DNA of 64,000 nt from a virus. Under the pieces are notes generated by a model, which had not been told where the DNA came from, did not search any database, and worked only from the letters and a program-made list of their open reading frames with translations. The translations under genes were made by a program, and so were the position numbers. How positions within the stretch are numbered: position 1 is the first letter of the stretch; each line of letters starts with the position of its first letter. Shown piece after piece: positions 4,479 through 38,742 of the stretch. The stretch is taken from IMG/VR virus record IMGVR_UViG_3300043777_000022, positions 4,544 through 68,543 of that record. One strand, 5' to 3'.

Positions 4479-4724
4479 TTAAGCTTTTGACCAATTCTTG
4501 TGGTTGTAGTGGGACGGACCATGATCCGGATTGGCCTGATTGCCTTGGATCGGGGGAGCCGCACCGCGCTTGTGATCGGGCATGTAGGAATCGCCTTCCT
4601 CACCGGCCGGGCCGTTCACCGCCTTGGACGCCAGCGATTCTACGCCGTAATCGCCGTCCGGCATCGTGCCGCCCATTCCAAGGCGCTTCCTAGGCGAAAC
4701 GAACTTTTCGTTAATCGTGCCCAT
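4479..4724 (-). CDS. Small protein, paralog-like to 4255-4473
   Basis: SD GGAG before MGTINEKF; DHKR...QANPDHGP. Confidence 0.6.
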   Translation of the reverse strand: MGTINEKFVSPRKRLGMGGTMPDGDYGVESLASKAVNGPAGEEGDSYMPDHKRGAAPPIQGNQANPDHGPSHYNHKNWSKA

Positions 4725-13778: not shown

Positions 13779-14129
13779 TACCACTCCTATAGACGAACCA
13801 CCGGGCTATCCGTCCCTTGACCCGGGGTTCTCTCGGCTCCTGGCAGGCCATTCGACCCGCTTCGTCAGCCGGACAGTCGCGGTTCCAGGGACCACTTTGG
13901 GGGCACGGCCACGACGCAGCAGCGTAGCACGCGGGAGAGGGTAGGAGGGATGGGCGTTCGCTACGAGCGGCTCGGATTGAGCAACAATATAATTAATATA
14001 GCAATGAAAAGCGCGGTGAAGAGTGACATAGTGTACCTCCAATAAGGAGTATAACACATACTGAACGGCCCCGGCAGTTTCCCACCGGGGCCAACGACTC
14101 AGGGTTGGGCTGGGTCGTTTGCAGCAGGA

Positions 14130-14315
14130 TTATCCCTGCTGTTTGTTGCCTCCGCCGTTGCCGTATTTGGTGCAGAATTGCTGCAGGGGTTCCACGGCGG
14201 CGTCCCACGCCTCGCGAATGTTGTGGGCGTTGGTGGGCTGGGCCTTGACAAGGTCATCGACATTGACCCCAAGCACCTTCTGGATGCCCTGGGTCTGCTG
14301 TTGATTCAACTGCAT
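14130..14315 (-). CDS. Small Gln-rich protein
   Basis: SD AGGAG; upstream TGATATGCT promoter-like site. Confidence 0.65.
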   Translation of the reverse strand: MQLNQQQTQGIQKVLGVNVDDLVKAQPTNAHNIREAWDAAVEPLQQFCTKYGNGGGNKQQG

Positions 14316-14405
14316 GAAAGTCTCCTATGTTGTGGTAGAGGCTCCTCACACGACCAGCATATCACAGGGAGGGGGAGGGACCCATGCGACACGGTGTCAC
14401 ATAGG

Positions 14406-14879
14406 CTACTTGACCCTGACACTCACTATTTTAACGTCTGGATTGCGTGGGTGGGTTTCCTCCCCAAGTCGTTCAAATTTCGCCCCTCTAGCTAAAATAT
14501 GTTCGCGAGGGTCCATAGACTCAGGGTATGGCTTCATTGAAGTCCCCTTAGTACCCTTCGGGACGTGAATTTTATAAATAGTGCCCTTACTGTCCTTACC
14601 CGCCTCTGCGGGAAGGTAATCATACGCCACTTCGGGGTCTTCGTGAGCAGAAGTATAGGCCTTCTCTGTTGACCCATGCTTAATAGTGTCTTTAGGCTGC
14701 GCTCGATAGAGAGTGGTGTCCTTCTTATAGGGCTTCATATGCTTGTCTAAATCAGACACGAATCCTTTGTCCCCCTCTGAGAGTTTGCCCTTCCGCAACG
14801 CGGGGTTAACGTCCCAGGATCGGGATTGATATTCAGAGGGAGGGGCCGGAGGACCCGAGCGCCAAGCGAATTTGGACAT
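14406..14879 (-). CDS. ADP-ribosyltransferase, VIP2/Alt-like (R-S-E class)
   Basis: VNPALR, TLYRA, AYTSA, IYKIHVPKGTKG, REHILARGAKF. Confidence 0.8.
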   Translation of the reverse strand: MSKFAWRSGPPAPPSEYQSRSWDVNPALRKGKLSEGDKGFVSDLDKHMKPYKKDTTLYRAQPKDTIKHGSTEKAYTSAHEDPEVAYDYLPAEAGKDSKGTIYKIHVPKGTKGTSMKPYPESMDPREHILARGAKFERLGEETHPRNPDVKIVSVRVK

Positions 14880-14890
14880 GGTATCACATA

Positions 14891-15241
14891 CTAGCGTAAT
14901 TTAAACTTTACCGGGGTTCCGGAAGGACCACCAGCTTCTTCGAATTCATCATCGCTCATTCCTGCAAACCGCGCCCCGCTTGTACGTTTCGTGGTTACGG
15001 TCTTAACGTTAGGATAGGTATTACGCAAATGCTCCGCCATGGCCCTAACGTGCTTAGGACCAATTACATTAGGTTGGTCCTCCCCCGAGGACCCTTTCGG
15101 CTTAGCCCCCATATACACTACATTTAAATTTTTATTCTTAGGAGGGTGTGCAATCAAGTGGCCTTCTACGTCGTCGGATTCGAAATCCACGACATGCCTG
15201 CCAACACTATCCACACTATTACGAAAGGCGAACTTAGACAT
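14891..15241 (-). CDS. Hypothetical protein, N-terminus MSKFAFRN, probably leaderless
   Basis: ATG 6 nt after TGCTATACT. Confidence 0.7.
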   Translation of the reverse strand: MSKFAFRNSVDSVGRHVVDFESDDVEGHLIAHPPKNKNLNVVYMGAKPKGSSGEDQPNVIGPKHVRAMAEHLRNTYPNVKTVTTKRTSGARFAGMSDDEFEEAGGPSGTPVKFKLR

Positions 15242-15446
15242 ATGACAAGTATAGCATAGGGGAGGGACCCGCGCCAGATAGTTCGATACGAGAGAAGTTC
15301 GGGGACCCTGTCCTGGGTCCTTTGCTTCCCATTTCGTTTCAATTCTCTTCCCGGCCAGTTCCAGGGGACCCTCCGTTTCGTGTCCCGTTTCCGGTTCCAG
15401 GCGGGGAGCGGCACGCGCCACCCAGCCCGAAACGGAAACCGAGCGA

Positions 15447-15620
15447 TCAGTCCTCCCCCTTCAGCTTCCTGATCGCAGAACGCAGCAGCTTGTTGATTGG
15501 CTGATCTTCCCCGCCGTCCGCGTATTCCGCCGCTTCGATCAGCGCCCCGATTTCGTCCATGTCGAGGGCCAACAGGTTTGGCCGCTTGTTGAGTGGAACT
15601 TGGTACAGTTGCTTCGCCAT
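15447..15620 (-). CDS. Small protein MAKQLYQVPLNKRPNLL...
   Basis: 57-aa ORF read by hand; SD GGAG. Confidence 0.6.
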   Translation of the reverse strand: MAKQLYQVPLNKRPNLLALDMDEIGALIEAAEYADGGEDQPINKLLRSAIRKLKGED

Positions 15621-16063
15621 CGTCAGTCTCCAATGTTGCTGGCCTCTTTCAGCCAGTCACACATTAAACCACAGCCCGCGCCGCGTGTCCACCCACTTCG
15701 CTGCATGGTCGATCTGCGTTCGGCTCATGTTTCTGGTTCGGGCTGGACGCGCCGCGTGGCACGCTTCTTGCAGACGGAAACCGAACCGGAGACGTGACAG
15801 GCAGCCCGGAGGCCAATGTCAACTGCGAGTTGAAACGCAACGCGGGACGCAACCAAAAGTGGGTCGATAAACGCGACCCGCAGCCCGAATCACAAGCGAA
15901 ATGACCGCTTAACAGATAGGTAAGTGATACTGACCTATTTGGAACCCAAAACGCGGCTTTATGGCTGATCAAAGCGGCTTATACAACCGACAATGAGTAA
16001 CGACTTGTCACTACGTCCGGGAGTGAGGGGGGATGCCGTCAAACCGCGTCCCGTCGTGCTTCG

Positions 16064-16114
16064 TCTCCTCTCTCTCCTCTCTCTCTAAAAAAAGAAAAAG
16101 AAGGAAAGACAGAG
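16064..16114. repeat. CT-rich tract followed by A/G-rich tract in the divergent intergenic region
   Basis: ctcctctctctcctctctctct-aaaaaaagaaaaagaaggaaagacagag. Confidence 0.6.
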
Positions 16115-16317
16115 CGGCGACACCCCGCTGAAGGGACGGGGCGGACGCTGCGCTTTTAGGGGGGGTTAAGTCGTGATAGTGGCCTTAACCCGCGTCAGAC
16201 GGGCATTCGTGTGTCACCCCATCATTGGGACAGGTCGAGATAGTCGTGACACTCCACCCGAACGAGGCTAGACCCCTCCCCCGCCTTGTGCTGTCCTGCG
16301 ACCAGGAGGGATTAGTC

Positions 16318-16644
16318 ATGGCGTTCGTTCCAGGTTCCGTGATCGAGTGTGTCAACCACAAGGATGTGATCCTAACCAAAGGCAAGCACTATGAGGTGTT
16401 GGGCCAGTGCGGCTGGCAGGTCGGCGTCCTCAACGACCGCAAGCAACCACAGTTTTACGACGAGGCGCGGTTCAAGCTAGTTCGACCGGCCAAGTCGCCC
16501 GCCGTGGATAGTTCGGCGCTGGTCGTGTTGTGCGACGCAGCAGAGAAGCTGATCGCGGCGTTGCGCGATTCGGGCGCGGTTGTCCAATCCCTGGTCGATC
16601 AGGTCGCCCACCTGGAACAGGTGATAGCCTTTGCCCGGTCCTAA
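16318..16644 (+). CDS. SH3-like small protein (LTKGKHYEV...ND...YD..RF)
   Basis: SD GGAGG; similar to 19722-19901. Confidence 0.7.
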   Translation: MAFVPGSVIECVNHKDVILTKGKHYEVLGQCGWQVGVLNDRKQPQFYDEARFKLVRPAKSPAVDSSALVVLCDAAEKLIAALRDSGAVVQSLVDQVAHLEQVIAFARS

Positions 16645-16943
16645 CGTGTTGCTCCTATGTTGCCGTGGTCGATCCCACGGTCCCCAACGATAACACGCCG
16701 CGCGGCCTAAGTCCACCCACGCCGTGACATGGTGACCCCGCGTCCCGCGCATGTCGTCGTGGCACAAGTCTTGCTACGCGCGCATGCCCGCGTACTAAAA
16801 AGTCGCCATTGCAGCCATGCGTCCCGCGCATACCCACCCTGCGTCAGACCCTATAGCGCCGCTTCGTCAGCCGTGCTTTAATTCAGTCACGGTCGGGGAT
16901 CGACCGGAAACGGGCCAAGCGCCCCTCACATAGGAGAACGACC

Positions 16944-17543
16944 ATGTTGCGAACTCACCTCATGCTGACCACGGCGATCTGCCGTGCAGCCGAAGCCGGG
17001 ACCGGCGCGGACGACCTGCCGCTCACCGATCCGCGTCATCCACTCCACCGCGCGGACGTAGTCAAGACCGAGACCCCGGCTGCCCCCAAGGCGAAGGCGT
17101 CCGGCGTGACCCGCAAGGCCAAGGAGGCGAAAGCCCCCAAGACCAAGAAGGCCACGGCTTCGGCGAAGAAGCCGCACGAACCCTCCAAGATCGTGTCCAC
17201 CGAGGACAATCCGTCCAAGTCAATCGTGCCGGGCAAGTTCAAGGTCCTGTACGCGGCGCACGGCGGTACGAACGGCGATAACGTGGCGGTCGCCCTCAAG
17301 GCGGCGGAGACTATCAACTCCGAAGGTCGCCCCTCGCTCGATTGGGACACCATGCTGACCATCGCAAAGGCCAACGATATCGACCTGTCGGCCTACGCGC
17401 ACCTCAACCCCGGTCAGAAGCGCATGAACCTCGGCAACAAGCTGCGGGGCATGGTCAAGTCCGGCAAGACGGTCGTGATCGGCAAGAAGCGGATCGCCAC
17501 GCTCAAGGCGGCGGACGCTGTCGAGCAGAAGGCTGCGGCCTAA
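16944..17543 (+). CDS. Lys/Ala-rich protein with LNPGQKRMNLGNKLR domain
   Basis: SD AGGAG; paralog at 29757-30407. Confidence 0.8.
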   Translation: MLRTHLMLTTAICRAAEAGTGADDLPLTDPRHPLHRADVVKTETPAAPKAKASGVTRKAKEAKAPKTKKATASAKKPHEPSKIVSTEDNPSKSIVPGKFKVLYAAHGGTNGDNVAVALKAAETINSEGRPSLDWDTMLTIAKANDIDLSAYAHLNPGQKRMNLGNKLRGMVKSGKTVVIGKKRIATLKAADAVEQKAAA

Positions 17544-17553
17544 CGCGCGACAA

Positions 17554-17587
17554 GCTAGCTGCCCTGGTTCACGCCGGGGCAGTTGGC
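17554..17587 (+). other. 14-bp RNA hairpin with 3 G-U pairs
   Basis: GCTAGCTGCCCTGG-TTCACG-CCGGGGCAGTTGGC. Confidence 0.55.
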
Positions 17588-17620
17588 GTGTCACGGTTGG
17601 CACGAGACCAGGAGGACGCT

Positions 17621-17884
17621 GTGGCAAAGAATGACCCATGGGAGTTTGTGGTGGAGGGCGCAGGTCGCTTCCCACTCGACATGCTCCGTTACGACGCGTG
17701 CTACCCAATGCGTGGGGAGGACGTGGACGGTATGGACCCGGAGAATCGGGACCGACGACAGGTCCACTTGCGCTCCCGCGTCGCGGGTCCAACGATCAAG
17801 CGTTGGGAGTCGTTCCTGTGGAGCGTGGTCCAAATCCGCGACAACTACGGCCGCGTGATCCACGACACCAGGAGGGCTGCTTAA
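17621..17884 (+). CDS. Hypothetical protein (FPLDMLRYD...PT..RWESF.W)
   Basis: SD GGAGG, GTG start. Confidence 0.75.
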   Translation: MAKNDPWEFVVEGAGRFPLDMLRYDACYPMRGEDVDGMDPENRDRRQVHLRSRVAGPTIKRWESFLWSVVQIRDNYGRVIHDTRRAA

Positions 17885-17986
17885 GGTCGAAACCTAGGGA
17901 GGGCAACGCCGTGGTCAACTTGCGGGTGCAAGCAAGCCACGGCCCCTCCCGACGGTCCACCGGTAGAGGCCGGTGCTGACGAGACC
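17885..17986 (+). ncRNA. Type II hammerhead ribozyme
   Basis: GGTC-GAAA-[stem III]-GTC^-CACCGG/CCGGTG-CTGACGA-GACC; all core nucleotides and three helices present. Confidence 0.85.
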
Positions 17987-18005
17987 AGGAACATAGGGGA
18001 TAAAC

Positions 18006-18173
18006 ATGGCTAAGCTGAAATCGCTAGCCCAACTGAAAGACGAGTTGGATCGCGGCGAACTCAAGGTAACGGTGTGGTCCGGTTATCCGGACCCCCGCGA
18101 TCCAGACAACTATTGGATCGACGATGAAACCGGCGAACGCCGTAAGGCACCCAACGGCGAGAGGGTGTCATGA
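18006..18173 (+). CDS. Small protein MAKLKSLAQLKDELDRGE...
   Basis: 55-aa ORF read by hand; ATGA-coupled to next gene. Confidence 0.6.
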   Translation: MAKLKSLAQLKDELDRGELKVTVWSGYPDPRDPDNYWIDDETGERRKAPNGERVS

Positions 18174-18469
18174 CCCACACCAACAACGTTGCGCCGCTTC
18201 TCCGCGTCCCGGTCCTTGACCATCAAGTGACCGATGCCACTTTCGCGGGGTATCACAGGTTCCGTGTCGAGCCGTGCGATTGGATCGACGGAAGGCCGGT
18301 GGACTACGGGTCGTTCGAGGTGTTTCACCATGATGCGTGCGGCCACGAGGGTTGCGATGGTCCTGGCTGGTATTGGTGGCCGTGTTTTCCCGGCTGCCTG
18401 CCGGACGGCGACCCGTCTGGACCCTTCCCCACGGCCGAAGGTGCTTACCTCGACGCAATAGGAGACTGA
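18170..18469 (+). CDS. Hypothetical protein (GWYWWPCFPGCLPDGDPSGPF)
   Basis: Coupled ORF. Confidence 0.7.
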   Translation: MTHTNNVAPLLRVPVLDHQVTDATFAGYHRFRVEPCDWIDGRPVDYGSFEVFHHDACGHEGCDGPGWYWWPCFPGCLPDGDPSGPFPTAEGAYLDAIGD

Positions 18470-18470
18470 C

Positions 18471-18635
18471 ATGCGCAAGCCAACTGACACCGAGATTGTC
18501 AACGAAGGGGCGCAAGCGCGCCGCGAGGGCAAGCCGGTTAATTCTAACCCCCACTGCTATCATTCACGCCGTACGTGGGAGTTTGGCTGGATGGCGGAAG
18601 ATCGTGCGTCAGGAGAGGACCAACATGCGCCCTAA
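18471..18635 (+). CDS. Rmf/CrpP-like small protein
   Basis: EG.QARREG...NPH......W..GW pattern; SD AGGAG. Confidence 0.55.
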   Translation: MRKPTDTEIVNEGAQARREGKPVNSNPHCYHSRRTWEFGWMAEDRASGEDQHAP

Positions 18636-18837
18636 CCTCCCCACTATCACGGCCACGCTCGCCACCCGCGACTGGGTGCGCCAGCGACGGAAGGCCCTTG
18701 GCCGCGAGCCGACCGATGCCGAGTTGTGCTTTTTCATCCACGGCCGCTACGCCTACTTGGACCCGGCTGACCGCGACTACGTCTATTCGTGCGCCCTTCA
18801 ACTCCCGCCCAAGTACATAGGAGAGAAAGATGGCTAA
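18625..18837 (+). CDS. Hypothetical protein
   Basis: SD before MRPNLPT. Confidence 0.6.
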   Translation: MRPNLPTITATLATRDWVRQRRKALGREPTDAELCFFIHGRYAYLDPADRDYVYSCALQLPPKYIGEKDG

Positions 18838-19190
18838 GAATTGCGCCCTCTTCATTGGTTTCGACCCGATCTCGTTGGAGTCAATTCCACCCGGCTGCTG
18901 GATCGAGTACGAAGCGCGCTCCCGCCGCTGGTTCCTGGTCTGCCCTGGAGACGACAAATGATAGTTAGAGCAATAGGCGTCGCCGTGGCGCTGTGCGCTG
19001 GCATCGGGTTCGGCTACTTTTATGTCCACGAGTGGGTTCCACTCTTTCACACAGGAGGCTGACATGGCCATACTTGCGTTTGTATTGTGGTGTTGCGCGA
19101 TCCTGGGCGCTATCTTGGCACCTATATTCTGGTGTTGCGTGATCATCGCCATCATAGCTGAACTGGAACCGCGAATACCGAAGAAAGGAA

Positions 19191-19454
19191 ATGAGCCATG
19201 AGCAAGTTCGAACTGATCATGTATATCTGGCTGCTGTTCAACGTCCTGGTAGCGGTGGCAGTGTCATGATCTCCAAGTACCCGTTCCAGGTGGTGGTCTG
19301 GCGCACCAATGGCAACGTGACCACTCTGCCGCAGACCAAGTCCTTCGAGACGCTTGGTGCGGCCGGTCACTATGCCGAGGCCGAGCAGCGCTCGCCCAGT
19401 GTCAAGCGGGTCGAAATCCTGGCCATAATTGACCAATGGAACAAGCCGGGCTAA
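19191..19454 (+). CDS. Hypothetical protein; start uncertain
   Basis: ORF track. Confidence 0.5.
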   Translation: MSHEQVRTDHVYLAAVQRPGSGGSVMISKYPFQVVVWRTNGNVTTLPQTKSFETLGAAGHYAEAEQRSPSVKRVEILAIIDQWNKPG

Positions 19455-19457
19455 AAT
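19429..19457 (+). promoter_or_regulatory. Sigma70-type promoter TTGACC-N17-TAAAAT
   Basis: Near consensus; ATG 5 nt downstream. Confidence 0.7.
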
Positions 19458-19462
19458 GGCGA

Positions 19463-19615
19463 ATGTCCAAGTTCGCCTTTCGCAACGACCCGCAGAAACG
19501 TAAACAAAGACTTGAGGCTCTGTATCTGGCCTCGAAGCAGAATCAACAGGTGAACAATCCTTCACCTGTTACTAAAGGCAAAATCCCCGCTCCTGTCGAG
19601 CAGCCCTCGTCTTAA
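19463..19615 (+). CDS. 50-aa protein, N-terminus MSKFAFRN
   Basis: Read by hand; first 8 aa identical to 14891-15241. Confidence 0.65.
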   Translation: MSKFAFRNDPQKRKQRLEALYLASKQNQQVNNPSPVTKGKIPAPVEQPSS

Positions 19616-19721
19616 CCCTCCCCGCCGTGCTAGGATAAGTCATGATCTTGACCCTCCTCATAGTCGTCTATCCCGTGTGTGGGCTGTGGTGGTTGGTCTG
19701 TACCAAGGAAGGGCGTAAGTA

Positions 19722-19901
19722 ATGGCCGACAACACTTTCGCGGTGGGCGATTATGTCAAGTGCGTCCGGGGCGGGCACAATCTGGCCGAGGGCGCGGAAT
19801 ACGACGTCCGGATGGTCGGCCGCAAGCTGGTGGCCGTCACCAACGACTCAGGCGAAGACTTCTGGTACGATCCGGAGCGCTTCGTGAAGGAGACCGATTA
19901 G
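19722..19901 (+). CDS. SH3-like small protein (FAVGDYVKCV...GAEYDV...NDSG..WYDPERF)
   Basis: 59-aa ORF read by hand. Confidence 0.7.
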   Translation: MADNTFAVGDYVKCVRGGHNLAEGAEYDVRMVGRKLVAVTNDSGEDFWYDPERFVKETD

Positions 19902-20176
19902 TCGTCTTTGTACGCTTCAATCCTGTAATGCTTGGAAGGGTCCAGCGTCTCTCCGACTTGAGGAATGCGATGGTTGGTGGCTTCCGGGTTGAGGCGGTAA
20001 AGCTTCTTGTCCTTGGTAACGGCAGTCATTACGCCGCGATCCCGCCCGCTGTAAACCGACGTAATCTTGTTGGGGTTTGGAACCCTCCCGGCTGCGTCCG
20101 CCCCGTGTCGCACTTTCGATCCCGCGACGCCCGAGTGTGCCCGTTCGTGGTCGAGTAGTTCTTTGTCCTTAGCCAT
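19898..20176 (-). CDS. Hypothetical protein in inverted two-gene cassette
   Basis: SD GGAG; convergent with 19722 gene. Confidence 0.6.
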   Translation of the reverse strand: MAKDKELLDHERAHSGVAGSKVRHGADAAGRVPNPNKITSVYSGRDRGVMTAVTKDKKLYRLNPEATNHRIPQVGETLDPSKHYRIEAYKDD

Positions 20177-20384
20177 TAGTCTTCTCCAGTCTTTGAACCA
20201 CTTCTGCCGGTTCTTCCCGGACGCAGAACGTGTTACTCAAGGTAGTAATTACCGTGTGACACTGTGGCTCAAACTCCCTGGCCACCGGGGTCCGAACCGA
20301 AACCACTTGCGACGGCGCGATCCAGACCGGATGCCCGTCGCTGGAAGTGAACACCAGTAGTCCTAACGCGACGAGCAGCCACAT
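20169..20384 (-). CDS. Small protein with hydrophobic N-terminus (PVWIAPSQVVSV...VREEPAEVV)
   Basis: ATG 5 nt after TGCTAAGGT. Confidence 0.55.
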   Translation of the reverse strand: MWLLVALGLLVFTSSDGHPVWIAPSQVVSVRTPVAREFEPQCHTVITTLSNTFCVREEPAEVVQRLEKTNG

Positions 20385-20496
20385 GCCGCACCTTAGCACA
20401 GGGACCGGCCTCCCGTCTATCTGGTTCGAGTGCTGCCATGGAGTGCCCCTGTCGGGCTGCGCCTCTCCGTGATACTCTCCACGCCGGAGGAGCCAT

Positions 20497-20773
20497 ATGC
20501 CCTTTATGCCTGGACAACGCGTGCGGTATGTTGGTCGAGCGTACGGCATTAGGACTCCTTGTCTTTATTGAAAAAGTGGGTTCGGTTATTAAGCATGACC
20601 GCCCCTCTAACGTCTTGGTGCTAATGGACGAAATTGCTGATCCCGAGTATCCTGATCGCCGTCAGTGGGGAGTGCTTCCCGAAAACCTTGAGTTGGAGGT
20701 GGACGACGACCCTTTGAACGCCGCGATACGCGCCTACGTGGACGCGCAGAAGAAGGAGTTGGGCCTTGTTTAG
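20497..20773 (+). pseudogene. C-terminal-tag family member 10, frameshifted
   Basis: SD GGAGG + MPFMPGQRVRYVG stops at 20569-20571; remainder (...PLNAAIRAYVDAQKKELGLV) is in the +1 frame. Confidence 0.7.
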
Positions 20774-21005
20774 CGTTGGTCAACGCGTAGAGTATTTTGA
20801 CGGGCAGTACCCTTGCCGCAAATACTTGGGCCTGAGGGCGACCGTGTTAGAGGTGTGGGAAAAGGTGCTTAAGGTTAAATTCGATAACGGGGTGCAGATT
20901 GGGTTCAATATCAAAAATTTCAGACCCTTGGAACCCGAGACGCCCTTCAATGCGTCGCTGCGCTCTTACATTGAAGCCGAGAAGAAGGAGTTGGGCCTTG
21001 TTTAG
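20766..21005 (+). CDS. C-terminal-tag family member 11
   Basis: FSVGQRVEY...TPFNASLRSYIEAEKKELGLV. Confidence 0.85.
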   Translation: MFSVGQRVEYFDGQYPCRKYLGLRATVLEVWEKVLKVKFDNGVQIGFNIKNFRPLEPETPFNASLRSYIEAEKKELGLV

Positions 21006-21261
21006 GGAAGGCGATAGAGTAAGGGTCGCGCGCAAGAGTTTTGGCAGCCCGACCGTGCCTGAAATGATCGGGCCAAGGCACGTTATAGAAAATGTCGGTG
21101 GTATTGTTGCCTGGATCATTCAACTGGACGGCCTCAGGCGAGGCAACAGGTGGGTATGTTATGTGAACGACTTGGAGTACGCACGTCCCAACAACCTTTC
21201 TCCCTTGGAGCTATTGATTGAAGCCTACGTGGCCGAGCAGCGCAAGGAGTTGGGAATATGA
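20998..21261 (+). CDS. C-terminal-tag family member 12
   Basis: TTG start; FREGDRVRV...LSPLELLIEAYVAEQRKELGI. Confidence 0.85.
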   Translation: MFREGDRVRVARKSFGSPTVPEMIGPRHVIENVGGIVAWIIQLDGLRRGNRWVCYVNDLEYARPNNLSPLELLIEAYVAEQRKELGI

Positions 21262-21563
21262 GGCCCTTTCGCCGGGGGGATATCGTTACTGACAGCAACT
21301 ACGGCGAGGTGCGGTTTATTGTCGTTTATCCGGACGGCGACGCCGCCTTTTCCAGGCCTAATAAGGGCCTGATGTTTGCTACGAGAGACGATGGAATTGG
21401 GCACAAGGGTGTTGAGAATCTGACAGTCGCGTGGCCAATTAGTAATGGCTGGTTCATCCGGTCAGAGCGCTGTCGATTAATAAAGGCGGCGCAGCCTATT
21501 TCTGCCTTGGAAGCCGACTTAGAGCGCTACATCGCCGCCGAGTTCAAGGAGTTGGGCCTATGA
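21258..21563 (+). CDS. C-terminal-tag family member 13
   Basis: FRRGDIV...PISALEADLERYIAAEFKELGL. Confidence 0.85.
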   Translation: MRPFRRGDIVTDSNYGEVRFIVVYPDGDAAFSRPNKGLMFATRDDGIGHKGVENLTVAWPISNGWFIRSERCRLIKAAQPISALEADLERYIAAEFKELGL

Positions 21564-21838
21564 GGTGGTGGTTTGGCCGAAAATTTCGACGGGGCGACCG
21601 CGTGGTGTACGTAAATAAGATACTTGACCCCGATTGCGTTGGAGTTCAAGGCGAAGTGTGCAATTGGTGGACGTGGGATCGAGTGATTAAACAATACGTG
21701 TACGGGGTTGCTTATGACGACGGTGAGTATAGCCACACTCGCCAGAGTAGCCTGAAGCGCCTCAAAGTGTCGCGCTTCGAGCGTTCGTTGCGCGCCTACA
21801 TTGCTGCCGAGAAGCAAGCACTAGGAATAGACCAATGA
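21560..21838 (+). CDS. C-terminal-tag family member 14
   Basis: FRRGDRVV...SRFERSLRAYIAAEKQALGI. Confidence 0.85.
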   Translation: MRWWFGRKFRRGDRVVYVNKILDPDCVGVQGEVCNWWTWDRVIKQYVYGVAYDDGEYSHTRQSSLKRLKVSRFERSLRAYIAAEKQALGIDQ

Positions 21839-22113
21839 CGATCTTTACCAAGAAGGGCGGCAACTTCGTACCGCTGACGCGCGAGCAAATTCGAAGGATG
21901 CGCCGCGTGGATCAGGTCGTGGCCGTCGAAAAGCTAAGCCAACAGCTACTCAACACTTCTCGTGCCCTGGCGGGCTGGATGGAGAGCGTGGAGAAGAAGC
22001 ATTTGAAGATGGACGCCCACGATCTGGTCGTGACGCGGTTGCCCAACATCGAGCGGGTGCAATTGCAATGTGACGCCCTGGACAAGGCACTCAAGGAGCT
22101 AAGGCGTGTCTAA
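21835..22113 (+). CDS. Helical hypothetical protein lacking the full tag
   Basis: Coupled ORF inside the array. Confidence 0.65.
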   Translation: MTIFTKKGGNFVPLTREQIRRMRRVDQVVAVEKLSQQLLNTSRALAGWMESVEKKHLKMDAHDLVVTRLPNIERVQLQCDALDKALKELRRV

Positions 22114-23257: not shown

Positions 23258-25492
23258 ATGTCTGTAGTTGAACAGCCCAAAGAGACTTCCTCCGACGCTG
23301 TCAAGCAAACGATTGCTTGGGCGCGGAAACAAGGATTTCGCCCGGTTCCGTTGCGTTACGCGTCAAAAGCCGCCTTTAACGAGAAGTACGTGGACCTGAA
23401 TTACGTTCCGCCCGAAGACGACTTGTGGACTGGGCGGAAATTGGGCGTGGGCGTGGTGTGCGGCCCGAAATATGGACCGGGACCGGTCGATGTTGATTTG
23501 GACTGCGACGAGGCCGTGGCCTTTGCCAAAATCTTTCTGCCAACCACTTCCGCCGTATTCGGTCGCGCCTCCAAGCGTTCGTCCCACTGGCTGTACCGTG
23601 TCGAAGTAGATGAATTCCCGAAGCGGGCGTACGGCGACCCGGTCCAAGGCTCAACCATCGTGGAACTGCGTGGCGACGGCGGGCACCAGACTGTGTTCCC
23701 GGGTTCGATCCACGAGACCACCCATGAGGAAATCAAGTGGGAAATAAACGCCTTCCCGGACGTTCCGAAGGTGGACGCGGCGGCGTTAGAACTGGCGGTA
23801 AAGAAGATCGCCATTGCGACGCTGATCGTGCGGCACGCGTGGCTCGATGGCCAGCGCAACGAAGTGTGCAAACACTTGGCTGGCATCTTCTTCTACCTGG
23901 ACTGGACCGAGGACGAAGTCAAGCAGTTAATCGAAGCCGTGATGGAGTACACAGGTGACAATGACAAAACGCGTATCAAGACGGTCCACACGACATATAA
24001 AAAAGGTGAAAAGGGCGGGAAGATCACGGGGTCTAACAGCCTTCGAGCGTTGCTGGGGGACGCAAAAGTTGTTGACCGACTTCTTGAATGGAGTGGGTCC
24101 ACGGCGGCTTCCCTCTTACAGGACTATAATGAACGCTTTGCGGTCGTCACGGTTAAAGGCAAGTTCCGAATAGCCGAAACCGCAGGAGTGTCAAAAGGCG
24201 ACCCACCTACATTGTTTGCCCGCGACGACTTCCTTAACCTTATGGAAACGGACACGTTTACTGCGGACGACGGTAAGAAGGTTCCCAAGGCGCGCGTATG
24301 GTTGGCTAGCCCGAGGCGTCGCGCGTATCGGGGAATGGATTATATTCCCGGAGTAGAGGATGCCTCGCCCATACTCAACCTGTGGACTGGGTGGGGCGTG
24401 GACCCCAAGCCCGACGCGTCGTGCAGCGCCTGGAAGGATTTAATCTACTACACTATTTGCGGTTCGGACGACGAGACCTACAAGTGGTTAATCAATTGGT
24501 TCGCCAACATTCTGATCGAACCTAAAAACAAACCACTGACCGCGCCGGTCTTGGTCGGGCGACAGGGGGCAGGCAAGTCGCTGTCTCTAGGTTACTTTGG
24601 CCGCATCCTTGGCCCCGCTTACACAACGGTGACGCATGACGAACACATATACGGGAAGTTCAACAAACACCTTGCAACGACTTTGCTCCTCCATAGCGAA
24701 GAGGCCTTGTACGGGGGTGACCGAAAACATCGAGGCATTATTAAAAGTCTTATTACAGATGAATGGCGTATATTCGAACAAAAGGGAGTGGACGCGGAAA
24801 GAGTTCACAATTACCTGCGTCTTGTCCTCACCAGCAACGAGTCCTGGGCAGCCCCCACGGAAGTGGACGATAGACGTTTTACGATCATTGACCTTGAAGG
24901 AAGGAGTGCCCCCGCAGAAATAATCAAGGCCGTGTTGCACGAACAGGCGACGGACGGACCAGCCGGGTTGTTTCATTACTTGACCAAGGAGTTGGAGTAC
25001 GACCCGGCGCTGCCGCGCAAGAACCTGAAGAACGAGGCGCTGGCGTCGCTGAAGAAAATCAACATGGACCCTGTCGCTACGTGGTGGTACGAATGCCTAA
25101 AACTTGGACAACTGTTGCCTGATTATCTGTCTTGGGCATGCAAACCGGAGGGTGAAGCGTGGCCAGAGGTGGTGGCCTCGACTGCACTGCTAACTGCCAT
25201 GCAGTTGCACACCCGATTGGGTAAGGCCCGCTACGTCCCGGATGCCACTACTTTTGCTCTCACCTTGAACCGGATGGTAAACACTAAGCTGGAGAGGGAG
25301 CAGCGGTACTTTAACAATCCAGTATCGCCCAACCACCCCCGCGAAGTCCGGATGCTCAATAGGAAGCAACATACCATTCTTAACATGCCGACCTTGGAAA
25401 ACTGCAGGCGGGCCTTTGGGTGGTATATCGGCCAAGAGATAAGCTGGTCGGCAAACGAAAAGGAAGTGAAGGAACAACATGACAAGTTCTGA
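23258..25492 (+). CDS. Primase-polymerase fused to SF3-type helicase
   Basis: DVDLD, SHWLY, QTVFPGSIH prim-pol motifs; Walker A GRQGAGKS; LTSN, DDRRF. Confidence 0.9.
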   Translation: MSVVEQPKETSSDAVKQTIAWARKQGFRPVPLRYASKAAFNEKYVDLNYVPPEDDLWTGRKLGVGVVCGPKYGPGPVDVDLDCDEAVAFAKIFLPTTSAVFGRASKRSSHWLYRVEVDEFPKRAYGDPVQGSTIVELRGDGGHQTVFPGSIHETTHEEIKWEINAFPDVPKVDAAALELAVKKIAIATLIVRHAWLDGQRNEVCKHLAGIFFYLDWTEDEVKQLIEAVMEYTGDNDKTRIKTVHTTYKKGEKGGKITGSNSLRALLGDAKVVDRLLEWSGSTAASLLQDYNERFAVVTVKGKFRIAETAGVSKGDPPTLFARDDFLNLMETDTFTADDGKKVPKARVWLASPRRRAYRGMDYIPGVEDASPILNLWTGWGVDPKPDASCSAWKDLIYYTICGSDDETYKWLINWFANILIEPKNKPLTAPVLVGRQGAGKSLSLGYFGRILGPAYTTVTHDEHIYGKFNKHLATTLLLHSEEALYGGDRKHRGIIKSLITDEWRIFEQKGVDAERVHNYLRLVLTSNESWAAPTEVDDRRFTIIDLEGRSAPAEIIKAVLHEQATDGPAGLFHYLTKELEYDPALPRKNLKNEALASLKKINMDPVATWWYECLKLGQLLPDYLSWACKPEGEAWPEVVASTALLTAMQLHTRLGKARYVPDATTFALTLNRMVNTKLEREQRYFNNPVSPNHPREVRMLNRKQHTILNMPTLENCRRAFGWYIGQEISWSANEKEVKEQHDKF

Positions 25493-28140: not shown

Positions 28141-29329
28141 ACTGACGACGGCGGGCGTGCAAGAACTGTACGCGATGCTCAAGACCTGCCGCCCTCACGG
28201 GTCGCGGGCCGAAGTGGACTTCAACAAGAAGTTTCTGCTGCCGCTGGGGGTGACGTTTGACTCTTTCGGCAACTCCTGGAAGAAGATCGGCACCGCGCCC
28301 ATCGCCTATTCGTCGCACGTGGACACCGTTCACAGTCTCGGCGGCACGCAAAACATCGTGCGGACCGACGATTACGTGCTGAAGCTGCACAACAACTCCC
28401 CTTCCAACTGCCTGGGTGCCGACGACACGGCGGGGGTGTGGCTGATGGCGGAAATGATCCGGGCCAAGCGGCCGGGGCTGTATATCTTCCATCGGGGTGA
28501 AGAGTGCGGCGGCAAGGGGTCGGATTTCATATCCAAGCACACCAAGCATCTGGTGGAGGGTATGGAGTTCATGGTGGCCTTCGACCGCAAAGGCTGCGAC
28601 TCCATAATCACGCACCAATTCGGAGGGCGCTGCTGCTCCGACGACTTCGGCAAATCCCTGGCCAAGCAACTGGGCGAGGATTATAAGCTAGACAAGGGAG
28701 GCTCGTTCACGGACAGCGCCAACTATACGGACTTGATCGCCGAATGTACCAACGTGTCGGTCGGTTACGAACGCCAGCATACCAAGTCCGAAGAGTTGAG
28801 CATGCACCACTTGGTGGACCTGCGCATGGCGCTGATGCACTTGGACGTGGACAAGCTGGTGATCAAGCGCAAGCCCGGCGAAAAAGTCTACGACCGTTAC
28901 AATTATGGATACGGCGGCTACCAAGACCCCGAATTTGGCTGGTTCTCGGGGGGCTATTGGGACTACGAGCAAAAGAAGTGGGTGTCCTGCACCAAGGACG
29001 TGTGGCTCGCCCGCAAGCGCCAGGAAAAGTACGGCAAGAAGGGCACCAACGTGGTGGCCATGTCGTCGCAGCAGGAAGGCCCGCCGGTCATTGACCCGAC
29101 TAATCCGGACGAGCGCGAAATGGCTGCCTTCTGCTGCGCCAACTACGAGAAAATAGCCATCATGCTGCTCGACTGGGGCTTCGATGCCGACAGCGTGAGA
29201 ATGTGCATGGCGTCGTCGCTGGTGGACGCAGGCAAGGCCAAGGCGACAGCCAAGGACAAAGGCGATAAGACCGACATGACGTCGGAGAATTACGACCCCA
29301 AGGCCGATACGGAAAAGAGGCCAATGTGA
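28130..29329 (+). CDS. Zn-dependent M28/M20-like hydrolase
   Basis: SHVDTVH, LGADD, GEE.G, FDRK, QH metal-ligand motifs. Confidence 0.8.
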   Translation: MSDKLTTAGVQELYAMLKTCRPHGSRAEVDFNKKFLLPLGVTFDSFGNSWKKIGTAPIAYSSHVDTVHSLGGTQNIVRTDDYVLKLHNNSPSNCLGADDTAGVWLMAEMIRAKRPGLYIFHRGEECGGKGSDFISKHTKHLVEGMEFMVAFDRKGCDSIITHQFGGRCCSDDFGKSLAKQLGEDYKLDKGGSFTDSANYTDLIAECTNVSVGYERQHTKSEELSMHHLVDLRMALMHLDVDKLVIKRKPGEKVYDRYNYGYGGYQDPEFGWFSGGYWDYEQKKWVSCTKDVWLARKRQEKYGKKGTNVVAMSSQQEGPPVIDPTNPDEREMAAFCCANYEKIAIMLLDWGFDADSVRMCMASSLVDAGKAKATAKDKGDKTDMTSENYDPKADTEKRPM

Positions 29330-33635: not shown

Positions 33636-34075
33636 TGCCTAACATAATGGACTTATACAGTAGGTTCGTGTGCCCTGAGCCTAATTCTGGATGTTGGATT
33701 TGGACTGCCTACACCAATAAAGCGGGTTATGGCCAGTTTCGGTATGAAGGTAAGCAAGAATTAGCGCATCGTGTATCTTGGTTTATCAAAAATGGCCGCA
33801 CTGATAAGTGCGTGCTTCATCGTTGTGACAATCGCCCTTGTGTTAATCCGGACCACTTGTTTGAAGGAACACAACAAGACAACATTCGCGATTGTGTAAA
33901 TAAAGGCCGACACGGCTGGGTAACGGGGGAGGATGATCCTAATGCCAAGTTAACGTGGGACTTAGTTAGAGCTATTAGGAAAGACCCACGCCCTGGTAAG
34001 ATAGTTACCAAAGACTACGGCATTAGTTATGGGCATTATCGCCAGCTTAAAAGGGGGCGGTGGTGGAAAGAGTAG
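33635..34075 (+). CDS. HNH homing endonuclease
   Basis: GCWIW..GYG, AHRVSW, LHRCDNRPCVNPDHL..GT..DN. Confidence 0.9.
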   Translation: MPNIMDLYSRFVCPEPNSGCWIWTAYTNKAGYGQFRYEGKQELAHRVSWFIKNGRTDKCVLHRCDNRPCVNPDHLFEGTQQDNIRDCVNKGRHGWVTGEDDPNAKLTWDLVRAIRKDPRPGKIVTKDYGISYGHYRQLKRGRWWKE

Positions 34076-35904
34076 AGGAGATTTTTAATCGCCTTCGTGG
34101 TTCAAAGCGTATTGTTCTCGACCTAGAAACTTCGGGGTTGGATTTTAAGCGCAACCACGTAGTCGGCTGGGTGCTGACCTTTGGTCCGCGCGAGGGCGAG
34201 TCGTTTTATCTCCCGCTGCGCCATGCGGGCGGCGGTAACATTGAGGGGTGCTTGGTCCCGCAGACTAAAGACGGTTGGGACGGGTCATTGCATCCTGTTG
34301 AGAAGGAATTAATTAGAGAATTAAATCGCCCTGACCTGGAAATAGGGGGGCACAACCTTAGTTTTGATTTGAAATTTGCTTACAAATTAGGGTTGGTCGA
34401 TCCGGTTGCCAAATTCAATGATTCTATCATCAATGCTCCCTTGCTCAACGAGTACGCTCCGTCGTTTGCGCTAGATGCTTGTTGTAAGGCGGCAAGTGTC
34501 GTAGCTAAGAGAACTACTATTTATGATTACCTAATATCGCGTTTTCCGGAACTAAAGACGACTCCCAAACAAGCGATGGGCAGTTATTGGCGCTTAGCCG
34601 GTGACGATCCACAAGCGGTGGACTACGCGCAAATGGACGGCACGGCCACCTGGGCTTTGCTTGACTATCAGTCAAAGGAGTTGGGTGCGCAAGAACTGAA
34701 CAGGGTGCACGCTATTGAGTCACGCCTAATCCCAGTTTTGGTTAAAATGAGTTGCAGGGGCATAAAGATCGATGAAGAGCGTCTCGACGCTGTGACGCGA
34801 GAGACAGAGAGACGTATCGAGGAGGCGCGGAGAGCGCTACCGGAGGGCTTTAACTCTAGGGCACCTAGTCAGGTGCAGGCTCTCATGACGCGCTACGGCT
34901 ACATGGATTGGCCGCTTACTCCTAAAGGTAAGCCCTCTTTCCCGGAACAATGGCTTATAACCAACGACATTGGGCAGAAGATCGTTAATCTGCGTAAGTT
35001 TGAGAATTTAAAAGCCTCCTTCTTGACCCCCATGAAGGAGCAGCATTTGTTCAAAGGCCGTGTCCACCCGGAGTATAATCAACTGCGCGGGGACGATTTT
35101 GGAACTATCCTAGGTCGTTTGAGTTCCAGCAATCCCAATTTGCAGCAGGTTAATAAGCGAAGCAAAGAACTTGGTTATTTGCATCGTTCTATTTTTGTGC
35201 CTGACGAAGGCAAACGTTGGGGCAGTGCTGACTATTCCCAGATGGAACCAACTTTATTGGCGTACTATTCACGCTGCAGAGTGTTATTAGATGGGTATAG
35301 GTCCACACCTCGGATTGACGCTCACTTAGCGGTCGCCCAGGCTGTTAATCAGGCCACATGGGACGGAATGTCAGGGGCCGAGCAAAAGGCCGCCCGCGAA
35401 GTAGGTAAGCGTATTAATCAGACACTAATTACTGGAGGGGGCAAGGGCGTCTTGGTATCTAAATATGGAGTACCCGCGTCTGATGTTGATAAGCAGTGGA
35501 ACGACTACTTTCGAAGACTGCCTGAAATACGCGATTTCCAGCGCAAGGCCTCTGCGCGAATGCGGGATCGAGGTTATGTAGTAACGCTCCTTGGCCGTCG
35601 TTGTAGGATGGCTGATAAAGATTATGTGGCAGTTAATCGTTTGTTGTCTGGCGGGAACGCAGATTGCCTGAAGCAAAAGTTGGTGCAGATTGACGACTAC
35701 CTGCGTTCTGAAGGCGACGCGTGCAATGTTCTCTCGAACTGTCACGACGCGTTGGAGTTTCAGTTTAATGACGAGCGCGTCTACAAGCGTTGTCTTGAAA
35801 TAATGGTGGACTTTGGGCCGGATAATTTGATAACATTAGACGTGCCCGTGGCCATCGAAAGCAAAGAGGGCGGTTCATGGGCTGCAGCGACTTGGGATGA
35901 ATGA
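34060..35904 (+). CDS. polA: Family A DNA polymerase with 3'-5' exonuclease (DpoZ candidate)
   Basis: DLETSG, HNLSFD, YAQMD; GRLSSSNPNLQQ; DYSQME; CHDA. Confidence 0.9.
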   Translation: MVERVEEIFNRLRGSKRIVLDLETSGLDFKRNHVVGWVLTFGPREGESFYLPLRHAGGGNIEGCLVPQTKDGWDGSLHPVEKELIRELNRPDLEIGGHNLSFDLKFAYKLGLVDPVAKFNDSIINAPLLNEYAPSFALDACCKAASVVAKRTTIYDYLISRFPELKTTPKQAMGSYWRLAGDDPQAVDYAQMDGTATWALLDYQSKELGAQELNRVHAIESRLIPVLVKMSCRGIKIDEERLDAVTRETERRIEEARRALPEGFNSRAPSQVQALMTRYGYMDWPLTPKGKPSFPEQWLITNDIGQKIVNLRKFENLKASFLTPMKEQHLFKGRVHPEYNQLRGDDFGTILGRLSSSNPNLQQVNKRSKELGYLHRSIFVPDEGKRWGSADYSQMEPTLLAYYSRCRVLLDGYRSTPRIDAHLAVAQAVNQATWDGMSGAEQKAAREVGKRINQTLITGGGKGVLVSKYGVPASDVDKQWNDYFRRLPEIRDFQRKASARMRDRGYVVTLLGRRCRMADKDYVAVNRLLSGGNADCLKQKLVQIDDYLRSEGDACNVLSNCHDALEFQFNDERVYKRCLEIMVDFGPDNLITLDVPVAIESKEGGSWAAATWDE

Positions 35905-36337
35905 ACTTCAAGCCCAAAGCTTAGTGGTTAATGCTGTCCGAATTTACGACGGTTTTGGGGTAAAGCTAGCCCACAAGTTTTTGGTCGGTATTCCCGACCT
36001 ATTATTGTGTCTACCCAATCAACCTATCGGGTTATGGGAGGTTAAAATCGACAACGTTCCTAAACGCGACAATTACATTACTCTGAAGTTGACCCAATTA
36101 CAGGAGAAGACATTAAACGATCTAAATAAGGCGGGAGGTTACTGTGGGGTTATTTCGTTCTTGCGCGACGGACAAAAATTGTCAATAGCAGCTTTCCGTT
36201 ACGATATACTTCGATACGAAGACTCATGGACAGAAAAGCACCGAGTTAGTATACTAGGGTATGCTGAACTGCGGCGCGGATTGCGCGAAGAAACGATTGT
36301 TAGTGTATTAGAGAGGGCACATGGACAGCGCGTATAA
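35897..36337 (+). CDS. PD-(D/E)xK nuclease (VRR-NUC/resolvase-like)
   Basis: GIPDLL...WEVK...LTQLQ. Confidence 0.75.
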   Translation: MNELQAQSLVVNAVRIYDGFGVKLAHKFLVGIPDLLLCLPNQPIGLWEVKIDNVPKRDNYITLKLTQLQEKTLNDLNKAGGYCGVISFLRDGQKLSIAAFRYDILRYEDSWTEKHRVSILGYAELRRGLREETIVSVLERAHGQRV

Positions 36338-36698
36338 AGGATATCAATCGACTAATCCCAATGCCCCGTATTACAGAGCACCGGAAAAGCCCAAGACTCT
36401 GGTTCCAGACGCCTTGGTGTTAAGTTTCAAGCCTGAAGATTTGCTTGAGGAGCGCGGCCACACTCACGGCGAGTATAAAGAGACTGCTCGTATCGCGCAA
36501 TTTTTAAAAGCGTTTTTCCATGACGAACGGGGTTGGCGAGATTTGAACAATGCCCAAAAAGAAGCAATAGACATGACGTGCACCAAATTTGCACGAATAC
36601 TGGAAGGGGATCAAAATGCGCGCCAACATTGGGAAGACGTTGCCGGATATTCAGCGTTAATTGTGAATATGCTTAATGAAAAAGTGCCCTCGCTGTAA
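36321..36698 (+). CDS. DUF6378-like protein
   Basis: ERG.THG, KFARI, HWEDVAGYSAL. Confidence 0.75.
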   Translation: MDSAYKGYQSTNPNAPYYRAPEKPKTLVPDALVLSFKPEDLLEERGHTHGEYKETARIAQFLKAFFHDERGWRDLNNAQKEAIDMTCTKFARILEGDQNARQHWEDVAGYSALIVNMLNEKVPSL

Positions 36699-37161
36699 GA
36701 TTACTAAACCCTATTCAGAATTTGTTAGTAATAGGGCTAGGAGCAATGGGATAGCAACCTATTGTAGAAAATGCGATTGGCCTGCTAATAGAGAAATACG
36801 TAAGAGATATAGGGAGACTGTTCCCAACATGATTAAGAAATCCGCAGGCAACACTTATCGAAAGAGGAGAATAAGGCTGAAATACACTGTTATGAGTTAT
36901 TATTCCAAATGCGATCCTGAATGTGCTTGCCCTGGTTGTAAAGATAAGCACATGGAATTTCTAACCATGGACCATATTGACGGAGGCGGCACTAAAGCTA
37001 GGAGAGAGGGTATTATAAAACGGGGCAGTACCGAGTTTTATAAGTGGTTAATAGACAATGATTACCCTGGTGGTTTTCAAGTCCTTTGTTTTAACTGTAA
37101 TTTTGGAAAACACGTTTGTGGGATTTGCCCCCACGTTGGAGTTAGTAATGACCAAGACTGA
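36676..37161 (+). CDS. HNH-type endonuclease
   Basis: CPRC...CRKC; LTMDHIDGGG...QVLCFNCN. Confidence 0.8.
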   Translation: MKKCPRCKITKPYSEFVSNRARSNGIATYCRKCDWPANREIRKRYRETVPNMIKKSAGNTYRKRRIRLKYTVMSYYSKCDPECACPGCKDKHMEFLTMDHIDGGGTKARREGIIKRGSTEFYKWLIDNDYPGGFQVLCFNCNFGKHVCGICPHVGVSNDQD

Positions 37162-38275: not shown

Positions 38276-38483
38276 TCTGGTAATTGCTGACGTCCTGCGA
38301 GAATTGGACTTGGCCTCGTGTAAGTTTGGCCCTTTCCCCACTTCTATGCACGGTTATGCCGTGATCTTGGAAGAGTTGGACGAAATGTGGGCCGAAATTA
38401 AGCAGAACAACACTAATCGGGCCAGGGAGGAGTGTGTTCAGGTCGCGGCGATGGCGATACGCTTCCTAATGGACATTGAATGA
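38226..38483 (+). CDS. mazZ: MazG-like (d)NTP pyrophosphohydrolase
   Basis: ILEELDE...EECVQVAAMAIR; adjacent to purZ. Confidence 0.75.
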   Translation: MSQHPLQHNEPYPSQLDLVIADVLRELDLASCKFGPFPTSMHGYAVILEELDEMWAEIKQNNTNRAREECVQVAAMAIRFLMDIE

Positions 38484-38740: not shown

Positions 38741-38742
38741 AC

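Follow-up and report, generated by a model that had tools for sequence, protein, structure and literature searches.

Type II hammerhead ribozymes are common in bacteria and prophages, where, as described in the main text of the survey by Perreault et al. (2011; PMC3088659), they flank genes and have been proposed to process phage transcripts. Transcript processing is also proposed in PMC6765202, in passages that regard the role of bacterial and phage hammerheads as still open. Three type II hammerheads of Desulfovibrio vulgaris are described, in the text of a cyPhyRNA-seq study, as cleaving both in vivo and during in vitro transcription (PMC8782182). In the haloviruses HF1 and HF2, the element called HHphage belongs to a polycistronic transcript of the early region, where a start codon follows it after 13 nt, and a mapped 5′ end falls within 3 nt of its cleavage site, as summarized in the main text of the 2011 survey (PMC3088659).

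The DNA analysed here, referred to as the window, is a stretch of 64,000 nucleotides (positions 4,544 to 68,543) of IMG/VR virus record IMGVR_UViG_3300043777_000022, a 68,543-bp virus sequence with direct terminal repeats. A search of sequencing runs with 14000-22000 of the window yielded one DNA run, from a soil metagenome, which may be its source, and no RNA run. At 17885-17986 (+) of the window, flanked by two early genes of a soil phage, lies what is very probably a true self-cleaving hammerhead RNA. That this element is specifically a self-cleaving ribozyme of type II, carried in the rightward early/replication transcript of the 68.5-kb phage, is likely. The type II class proposed in an earlier, sequence-only reading holds, with the core, the helices, family covariation and the intercistronic placement all in agreement, and when 17600-18300 was re-read the coordinates claimed there for the ribozyme features were correct in every case:

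17885-17888, + strand: 5′-proximal strand of stem II, GGUC (positions 11.4-11.1), pairing with 17983-17986 in the MFE fold
17889-17892, + strand: core GAAA (G12 A13 A14 A15.1), from the sequence
17892-17956, + strand: stem III, with a 3-bp base, a 2 × 3 internal loop and a rod, from folds
17955-17957, + strand: cleavage triplet GUC, from the sequence
17957, + strand: C17, with the scissile bond predicted 3′ of C17957 from hammerhead numbering
17958-17975, + strand: stem I hairpin, CACCGG(U)/(G)CCGGUG, from folds (−10.8 kcal/mol)
17976-17982, + strand: core CUGACGA (C3-A9, with N7 = C), from the sequence
17983-17986, + strand: 3′-proximal strand of stem II, GACC (10.1-10.4), in the MFE fold, followed by A17987

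All 11 core positions agree with the hammerhead consensus (C3-A9, G12-A14, A15.1-U16.1 and a non-G at 17), and the core-adjacent pairs are canonical in all three helices: G17983-C17888 (10.1-11.1), C17958-G17975 (1.1-2.1) and A17892-U17956 (15.1-16.1). The 5′ to 3′ order is stem II, GAAA, the stem III hairpin, C17, the stem I hairpin, CUGANGA and stem II again; because stems I and III are capped by loops and stem II is open, 'type II' is the correct name. Stem I can be drawn as CACCGG plus a U·G pair with the loop AGAG, or as a 6-bp stem with the loop UAGAGG. At the base of stem III, ACC (17892-17894) pairs with GGU (17954-17956) through one A-U and two C-G pairs. Above this base follow the 2 × 3 internal loop, UA/GAC, and a rod of 7 + 8 + 5 bp that carries a 4-nt bulge, a 3 × 3 internal loop and a GGGU tetraloop; its paired segments are GGGAGGG/CCCUCCC, then GCCGUGG(U)/(G)CCACGGC (GCCGUGGU/GCCACGGC), then CUUGC/GCAAG. 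A K-turn was considered for the UA/GAC loop and dropped because the strand asymmetry does not suit one, and a small GUG-initiated frame inside stem III was judged to be an off-frame artefact of GC-rich sequence.

The unconstrained MFE structure of the 102 nt is exactly the three-way hammerhead junction, at −53.4 kcal/mol. Shuffled sequences of the same length gave −38.9 ± 3.75 kcal/mol (z −3.87), and none of 200 was equally stable; stem III alone (17892-17956) folds at −38.5 kcal/mol. In the MFE structure of a 211-nt context stems I and III are retained and stem II is swapped for alternative pairings, so that folding in vivo is not assured. A type II descriptor finds exactly one site on the two strands of the 68,543-bp genome, and no second copy of the element was found in that genome by blastn-short. 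In 400 dinucleotide shuffles of the genome, descriptor matches arose at 0.075 per genome at loose settings and at 0.0025 per genome when the settings were as strict as the real site allows (at least 4, 3 and 7 bp in stems II, III and I). Because even the latter rate yields chance matches over very many windows, the decisive support comes from the family evidence and the intergenic position.

Searches with standard covariance models are less favourable. At gathering thresholds, no Rfam model matches in the whole window, and in a permissive search the Hammerhead_II model, RF02276, reached 13.5 bits (E 4.4) against a cut-off of 37, with a mis-threaded alignment that takes in only the distal end of stem III. 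The Rfam search that had been suggested as a check on the ribozyme was therefore formally failed, but undoubted short relatives miss the same cut-off: two textbook-sized relatives in one metagenome or viral locus (L033) score 23.0 and 24.7 bits, and none of 14 loci with clear relatives has an Rfam match at gathering. In the Rfam consensus, stem II has 2 bp and the 3′ tail forms a pseudoknot. Since clear relatives also fall short, the miss is a limit of the model and not evidence against the site.

Two purpose-built models single the element out. With R1 the site is the only match in the window (54.2 bits), a score that is circular because R1 contains the window's sequence. R2 was built from 57 bacterial members only, with the window left out; its only significant match in the window is 17880-17991, over the full model length (43.6 bits, E 1.3e-10), and the next-best match has 10.2 bits (E 0.78). 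Both scores arise partly by construction, because the family was gathered with the window's own stem II and core. Several other matches in the window were set aside as chance, namely those to SCARNA18 and RT-19 at the Rfam E-value threshold, and those at 20345-20384 and 29297-29327 (+), which gave 11 bits (E 1.2) with RF02276 and 10.2 bits (E 0.78) with R2 and in which the core is missing.

Relatives were collected with a pattern in which the window's stem II, GAAACC, GGUH and CUGANGA-GACC were fixed and stem I and the interior of stem III were free. In viral contigs it found two loci, both with real hammerheads, and in metagenome contigs 22 loci, of which 13 satisfy all three helices; in L034, L037, L040, L041, L043, L045, L052, L053 and L054 the helices are not satisfied, and these look like chance matches. 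Extra hammerheads, as many as four in a locus, occur in the positive loci, and every one of them lies between genes. When bacterial and archaeal genomes were scanned for versions with a short stem III, at least 120 stretches were recovered, which span many phyla and include Acidobacteriota, Bacteroidota, Gastranaerophilales, Burkholderia and Paraburkholderia.

At 4092-4153 of L033 (= L047 3651-3712), a partial tandem duplication of the 5′ half, consisting of GGUCGAAACC and the start of stem III, lies directly upstream of a complete hammerhead, and L033 also has a stray CUGACGAGAC. Similar duplications of the 5′ half occur on the − strand of L046, upstream of the copy at 2832-2928 (−), and on the − strand of L051, upstream of the copy at 4593-4700 (−). 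Slippage, or recombination between ribozyme copies, may have left these duplications behind.

The relatives show strong covariation, read with the caveat that they were gathered with window-derived patterns. In alignment A1, comprising the window and 21 distinct metagenome or viral members (22 sequences), 97.6% of cells are paired, against 27-41% in slid-partner controls; the covariation score is 0.557 (0.131 when shuffled, with 0/500 shuffles as high), and all six pairs of stem I have changed on both sides. Alignment A2 comprises 57 bacterial-genome members among the matches listed (length at most 70, unique stem I, from 101 distinct); 98.8% of its cells are paired, the covariation score is 0.691 against 0.129 shuffled (0/500 as high), and five of the six stem I pairs have changed on both sides, the sixth being a conserved G-C. 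GAAA is invariant in both alignments but belonged to the search patterns, and stem II is invariant in them because the pattern fixed GGUC/GACC.

Stem II was freed in a second scan of viral contigs, in which the stem III junction ACC-UA...GAY-GGU was fixed instead. This gave five loci (L032, L177, L178, L179 and L180), all with the hammerhead fold, and here stem II covaries: GGUC/GACC, CUCC/GGAG, GGC/GCC, CGC/GCG (after an extra U) and GUC/GAC, that is, five variants among the six sequences that share the junction. These variants were read from the individual folds; L178 is misplaced in the MAFFT alignment of the six, and no pairs were counted there. Covariation in homologues, the absence of which had been named, together with a lack of self-cleavage, as refuting the ribozyme, is thus present in stems I and III at a level reached by 0/500 shuffles, and in stem II through the junction loci.

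Judged from its sequence, the window's element belongs to a widespread phage- and prophage-associated subgroup with a 4-bp GGUC/GACC stem II and no pseudoknot between loop I and the tail. As delimited here, the subgroup has an A 5′ of the 4-bp stem II, a stem I of 6-7 bp that ends in G1.6-C2.6 followed by U1.7, and usually an A 3′ of stem II, and the window has all of these (A17884, G17963-C17970, U17964 and A17987). The A at −1, U1.7, C17 and the A at +1 lay outside the metagenome and viral search patterns. An A at −1 is found in 22/22 aligned ribozymes under a pattern that did not require it. Among the matches listed, U stands at 1.7 in 123/128 members, as in the window, position 17 is C in 126/128 and A in 2/128, an A follows stem II at +1 in 103/128, and stem I has 6-7 bp in 123/128. 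Loop I departs from the rule: it is usually G-URANG-C, with the five nucleotides U-R-A-N-G, and in the window it is the 6-nt UAGAGG. This loop (GUAGAGGC), one base longer than usual, is unique among the 129 members in the matches listed, a few others of which also have a 6-nt loop I. Because the loop is unusual, the tertiary contact and the cleavage rate of the window's ribozyme are uncertain.

According to the main text of the 2011 survey, loop I pairs with the 3′ tail in most type II hammerheads, forming a pseudoknot of 4 bp or more that fast cleavage requires (PMC3088659). In the window this pseudoknot is absent, the best Watson-Crick run between loop I and the 3′ tail being 2 bp, and over the 129 members in the matches listed the complementarity of loop I and tail equals that of a tail-swapped control. 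Because the pseudoknot is absent, another tertiary contact is probably used by the subgroup. By analogy with type I and type III hammerheads, for which the text of PMC6155905 describes a conserved reverse-Hoogsteen A-U contact, the invariant A at −1, U1.7 and the G1.6-C2.6 pair may be regarded as candidates. The subgroup is set apart here by the main text of PMC3088659, and the supplementary alignments of that paper may already contain it.

The long stem III distinguishes the window within this subgroup. Total length is 50-69 nt in 114/128 members and stem III has 5-8 bp in most of them, among the matches listed, so that the 102 nt of the window stand at the long end. The inserts of other long members have no sequence in common with the window or with each other and share only a helical character. 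A recurrent junction, found in the window, L032 and L177-L180, consists of an ACC/GGU base, an asymmetric 5′-UA/5′-GAY loop and a G-C-rich helix; the rods of the five ACC-UA...GAY-GGU loci have 11-14 bp and unrelated sequences. An Rfam search of the window's rod returned nothing credible, and blastn-short found no repeats of it longer than 14 nt in its own genome. A conserved ligand- or protein-binding domain is not supported, because the rod is unconserved, unrepeated and without an Rfam match. The suggestion in the sequence-only reading that the large insert may be regulatory therefore finds no support, as the relatives' inserts vary freely in length and sequence, and it is simpler to read the long stem III as a hairpin that stabilises a 3′ end, or as a neutral expansion, than as a conserved sensor. 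By eye, a hairpin in the stem III insert of L036 (622-708) and L042 (6338-6424), GCGGG-UCUCGAAU-CCCGC, resembles a tRNA T-arm.

The element occupies 102 of the 121 bases between its flanking genes, within a + strand block of small ORFs that begins at about 16.2 kb:

17642-17884, + strand: 3′ part of the upstream ORF, whose frame is open from 17342; TAA stop at 17882-17884
17995-18173, + strand: SD-like AGGGGA (17995-18000) and a 55-codon ORF (ATG at 18006, stop at 18173)
23258-25492, + strand: primase
34060-35904, + strand: PolA-type polymerase
39628-41016, + strand: helicase

The label 'early' is plausible because this block leads into the replication genes; the genes for terminase, connector and head lie on the − strand. 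As had been read from the sequence, the ribozyme starts right after the upstream stop codon, at a distance of 0 nt from the TAA at 17882-17884, and ends before the next Shine-Dalgarno (SD) sequence, AGGGGA, with the ATG 19 nt downstream. The last A of the stop codon (17884) is at the same time the conserved A just 5′ of stem II. The upstream ORF matches PHROG 11674 (E 9e-13; residues 30-97 of the 17555-17881 translation), and the 55-aa protein has relatives in three viral contigs, with 66-77% identity over residues 24-55. A scan of 15400-19400 for sigma-70 promoters and terminators found none near the element.

Two other features of the genome are recorded in passing. One is a 199-aa ORF (16944-17543, +) that precedes the ribozyme by two genes. 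The N-terminal half of its product is rich in Lys, Ala and Pro and resembles histone H1, and its only family assignment is a weak match to PHROG 8941; a 67-kb phage record (G001), in which the neighbouring genes are arranged otherwise, matches about 365 nt of the ORF at 69% identity. Farther downstream, at 37058-38275 (+), lies an adenylosuccinate-synthetase-family gene (Pfam PF00709; PHROG 1211, '2-aminooxy adenylosuccinate synthetase', PurZ-like, E 2.7e-54), with the PolA-type polymerase just upstream and an HD-domain/YfbR-like gene (38743-39348, +) on its 3′ side. We take this arrangement of polymerase, PurZ-like and HD-domain genes (34060-39348) to be reminiscent of 2-aminoadenine (Z-base) genome clusters.

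The placement between a stop codon and a start codon, in the short spacer of two co-oriented ORFs, is a property of the family. Among the matches listed, the stop of a co-oriented upstream ORF of at least 60 codons lies within −15 to +3 nt of the ribozyme in 104 of 126 testable members, against 5% for random positions in the same loci, and the commonest spacing is 0-2 nt or a one-base overlap. Likewise, an ORF of at least 40 codons starts no more than 45 nt downstream in 107/124 testable members in the matches listed, against 40% for such random positions. By tblastn of ORF translations, the flanking genes at the other loci are not homologous to those of the window, except for one helicase in L033. 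On sequence comparison, then, the gene boundaries at which the hammerhead module turns up are unrelated to each other, in line with an observation of Perreault et al.

Conversely, phages that share the window's genes appear to do without the ribozyme. The descriptor found no type II hammerhead in L001-L024 (one locus reached through the upstream protein and 23 through a 99-aa protein), no relative loci were found for the 199-aa protein, and none of the three loci reached through the 55-aa protein (L029-L031) has a hammerhead upstream of the 55-aa homologue. R1 has no match in four genomes related through neighbouring small proteins (G001-G004), nor has RF02276 in G001, and megablast and blastn of 16900-19200 against phages returned only a 53-nt match in Burkholderia phage BCSR129. 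In both L030 and L031, the gene upstream is immediately followed by the homologue of the downstream gene. The ribozyme is thus dispensable for the gene arrangement.

The likely function of the element, on the modelled structures, is to split two cistrons by cleavage after C17957. In this model, the transcribed RNA would fold and then cleave itself 3′ of C17957 by internal transesterification. Stem III would lie wholly within the 5′ product and stem I wholly within the 3′ product. The products would thus be joined by stem II alone, which has only 4 bp (−3.8 kcal/mol), and are expected to come apart easily. At its 3′ end the upstream mRNA would carry the stem III rod (−38.5 kcal/mol) and then GACGGUC with a 2′,3′-cyclic phosphate. 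The downstream mRNA would start with a 5′-OH at C17958, within the stem I hairpin (−10.8 kcal/mol), followed by an SD sequence and AUG that are predicted to be unpaired in the 3′ cleavage product. From these predicted products it follows that the polycistron would be cut at a gene boundary without a host nuclease, leaving hairpin-capped ends, and such ends could set the stability and translation of each product independently. Processing of the early polycistron without host RNases, as had been put forward in the sequence-only reading, is the standard hypothesis for phages and prophages, fits the anatomy and can reasonably be inferred here.

Position N7 of the core separates the family by its distance from the next gene. 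The tally covers the 129 distinct GGUC/GACC members in the matches listed (loci L032-L176, e.g. L044, L046, L048 and L051). Among the matches listed, stem II is followed by an ATG at a distance of 0-4 nt in 9/9 members with N7 = G, and thus the core CUGAGGAGACC, against 6/120 with other N7 (Fisher p 2.4e-10); in the other-N7 members in these matches, ORFs mostly start 9-40 nt downstream and have a separate SD. Because the N7 = G core sits at SD distance from the ATG, its GAGGAG seems to double as a Shine-Dalgarno sequence. A non-exhaustive search of the literature without supplements found no description of this pattern, and the words 'Shine-Dalgarno', 'ribosome' and 'translation' do not occur in the main text of PMC3088659.

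These relationships raise the question whether, in a real ribozyme, the main role of cleavage could be translational, as an insulator or switch for the 55-codon gene and not as a determinant of mRNA stability. The ORF starts within 45 nt in 107/124 members and the ATGs close behind stem II in 9/9 N7 = G members against 6/120 (both among the matches listed) point this way, as do the SD AGGAG directly after stem II in L032 and the unpaired SD and AUG in the window's predicted 3′ product. In the window, however, N7 is C, and the SD at 17995-18000 lies outside the ribozyme. As the predictions show no pairing of this SD with the ribozyme, cleavage would have no evident occlusion to lift, and we consider a mainly translational role here unlikely. 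Very unlikely, in our view, is a selfish or neutral passenger that was recently inserted at the gene boundary, spreads horizontally among phages and may cleave without benefit. Its absence from 4/4 relatives reached through neighbouring proteins would suit such an element, as would the lack of homology between the flanking genes and those of other hammerhead loci (one helicase in L033 excepted) and the occurrence of the nearest look-alike, L032, in a 52-kb phage without similar genes around it. The precision of the stop-to-ribozyme placement (83% against 5% at random, among the matches listed) and the maintenance of the core and of the tertiary-contact positions nevertheless argue for selection on function, and neither flanking repeats, target-site duplications nor a second genome copy were found.

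The least probable explanation is that the site resembles a hammerhead by chance or is one that has decayed and become inactive, or that the long hairpin is the real element, as an RNase III-type site or a protein-binding rod, and the core incidental. The score below the Rfam threshold and the absent pseudoknot are compatible with a look-alike, and a chance rate of 0.0025 per genome is non-negligible over a very large scan; a rod of about 20 bp in three segments is of the size class of RNase III substrates. Nevertheless, 11/11 core positions and the three core-adjacent pairs are intact, family features outside the search pattern are present in the window, R2 gives E 1.3e-10, and the site lies between genes on the coding strand, directly next to a stop codon. 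Nor can the RNase III idea be general, because the rods of relatives with the same junction (11-14 bp) are too short. The reading preferred here remains that of a type II hammerhead that would separate two early cistrons.

A wider proposal, which goes beyond this reading and which we consider possible but doubtful, is that the window's element exemplifies a phage 'cistron-boundary module' that is widespread but has been poorly catalogued. Such a module would be pseudoknot-free and would couple cleavage to translation initiation and differential mRNA stability; in some members the core CUGAGGAG would serve as an SD exposed only after cleavage and release, and the 20-bp stem III of the window would have been selected as a 3′ protective hairpin. 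The element itself is no surprise, because hammerheads have been on record at the gene boundaries of phages since 2011, and the more interesting lead is the family-level link to the start codon. The strict stop/start placement and the core-as-SD pattern offer a testable link between self-cleavage, mRNA end structure and translation. Annotation pipelines under-count the subgroup, because the standard Rfam model misses GGUC/GACC members without a pseudoknot.

Other systems reach a similar outcome by different means. The early genes of T7 are separated by RNase III processing hairpins, which are cut by a host protein enzyme, and RiboJ, an engineered type III hammerhead, is a synthetic ribozyme insulator. 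The likeness to both is a functional analogy only, consisting in a defined cut and hairpin-capped ends; neither is related to the window's element. The bacterial and prophage type II hammerheads (RF02276, clan CL00010), by contrast, have the same core and circular permutation, are likewise associated with phage genes and gene boundaries and, in the main text of the survey, are likewise proposed to cut long phage transcripts (Perreault et al., 2011; PMC3088659). The consensus given there allows stem II to be as short as 2 bp and has the pseudoknot of at least 4 bp, whereas the window has a 4-bp stem II flanked by A and no possible pseudoknot; its stem III, at 65 nt, is also much longer than the about 15-20 nt of described type II hammerheads. 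The three D. vulgaris elements likewise lie beside hypothetical and phage-like genes, but, as the text of that study describes them, they are chromosomal, about 68-70 nt long and experimentally proven (PMC8782182), whereas the element of the window is predicted, 102 nt long and located in a free phage genome. HHphage, as presented in the main text of the survey, belongs to an archaeal virus, has core insertions and shows salt-dependent activity, whereas the window has a consensus core; in both, however, the hammerhead lies in an early viral region shortly before a start codon, 13 nt from it in HHphage and 19 nt in the window (PMC3088659).
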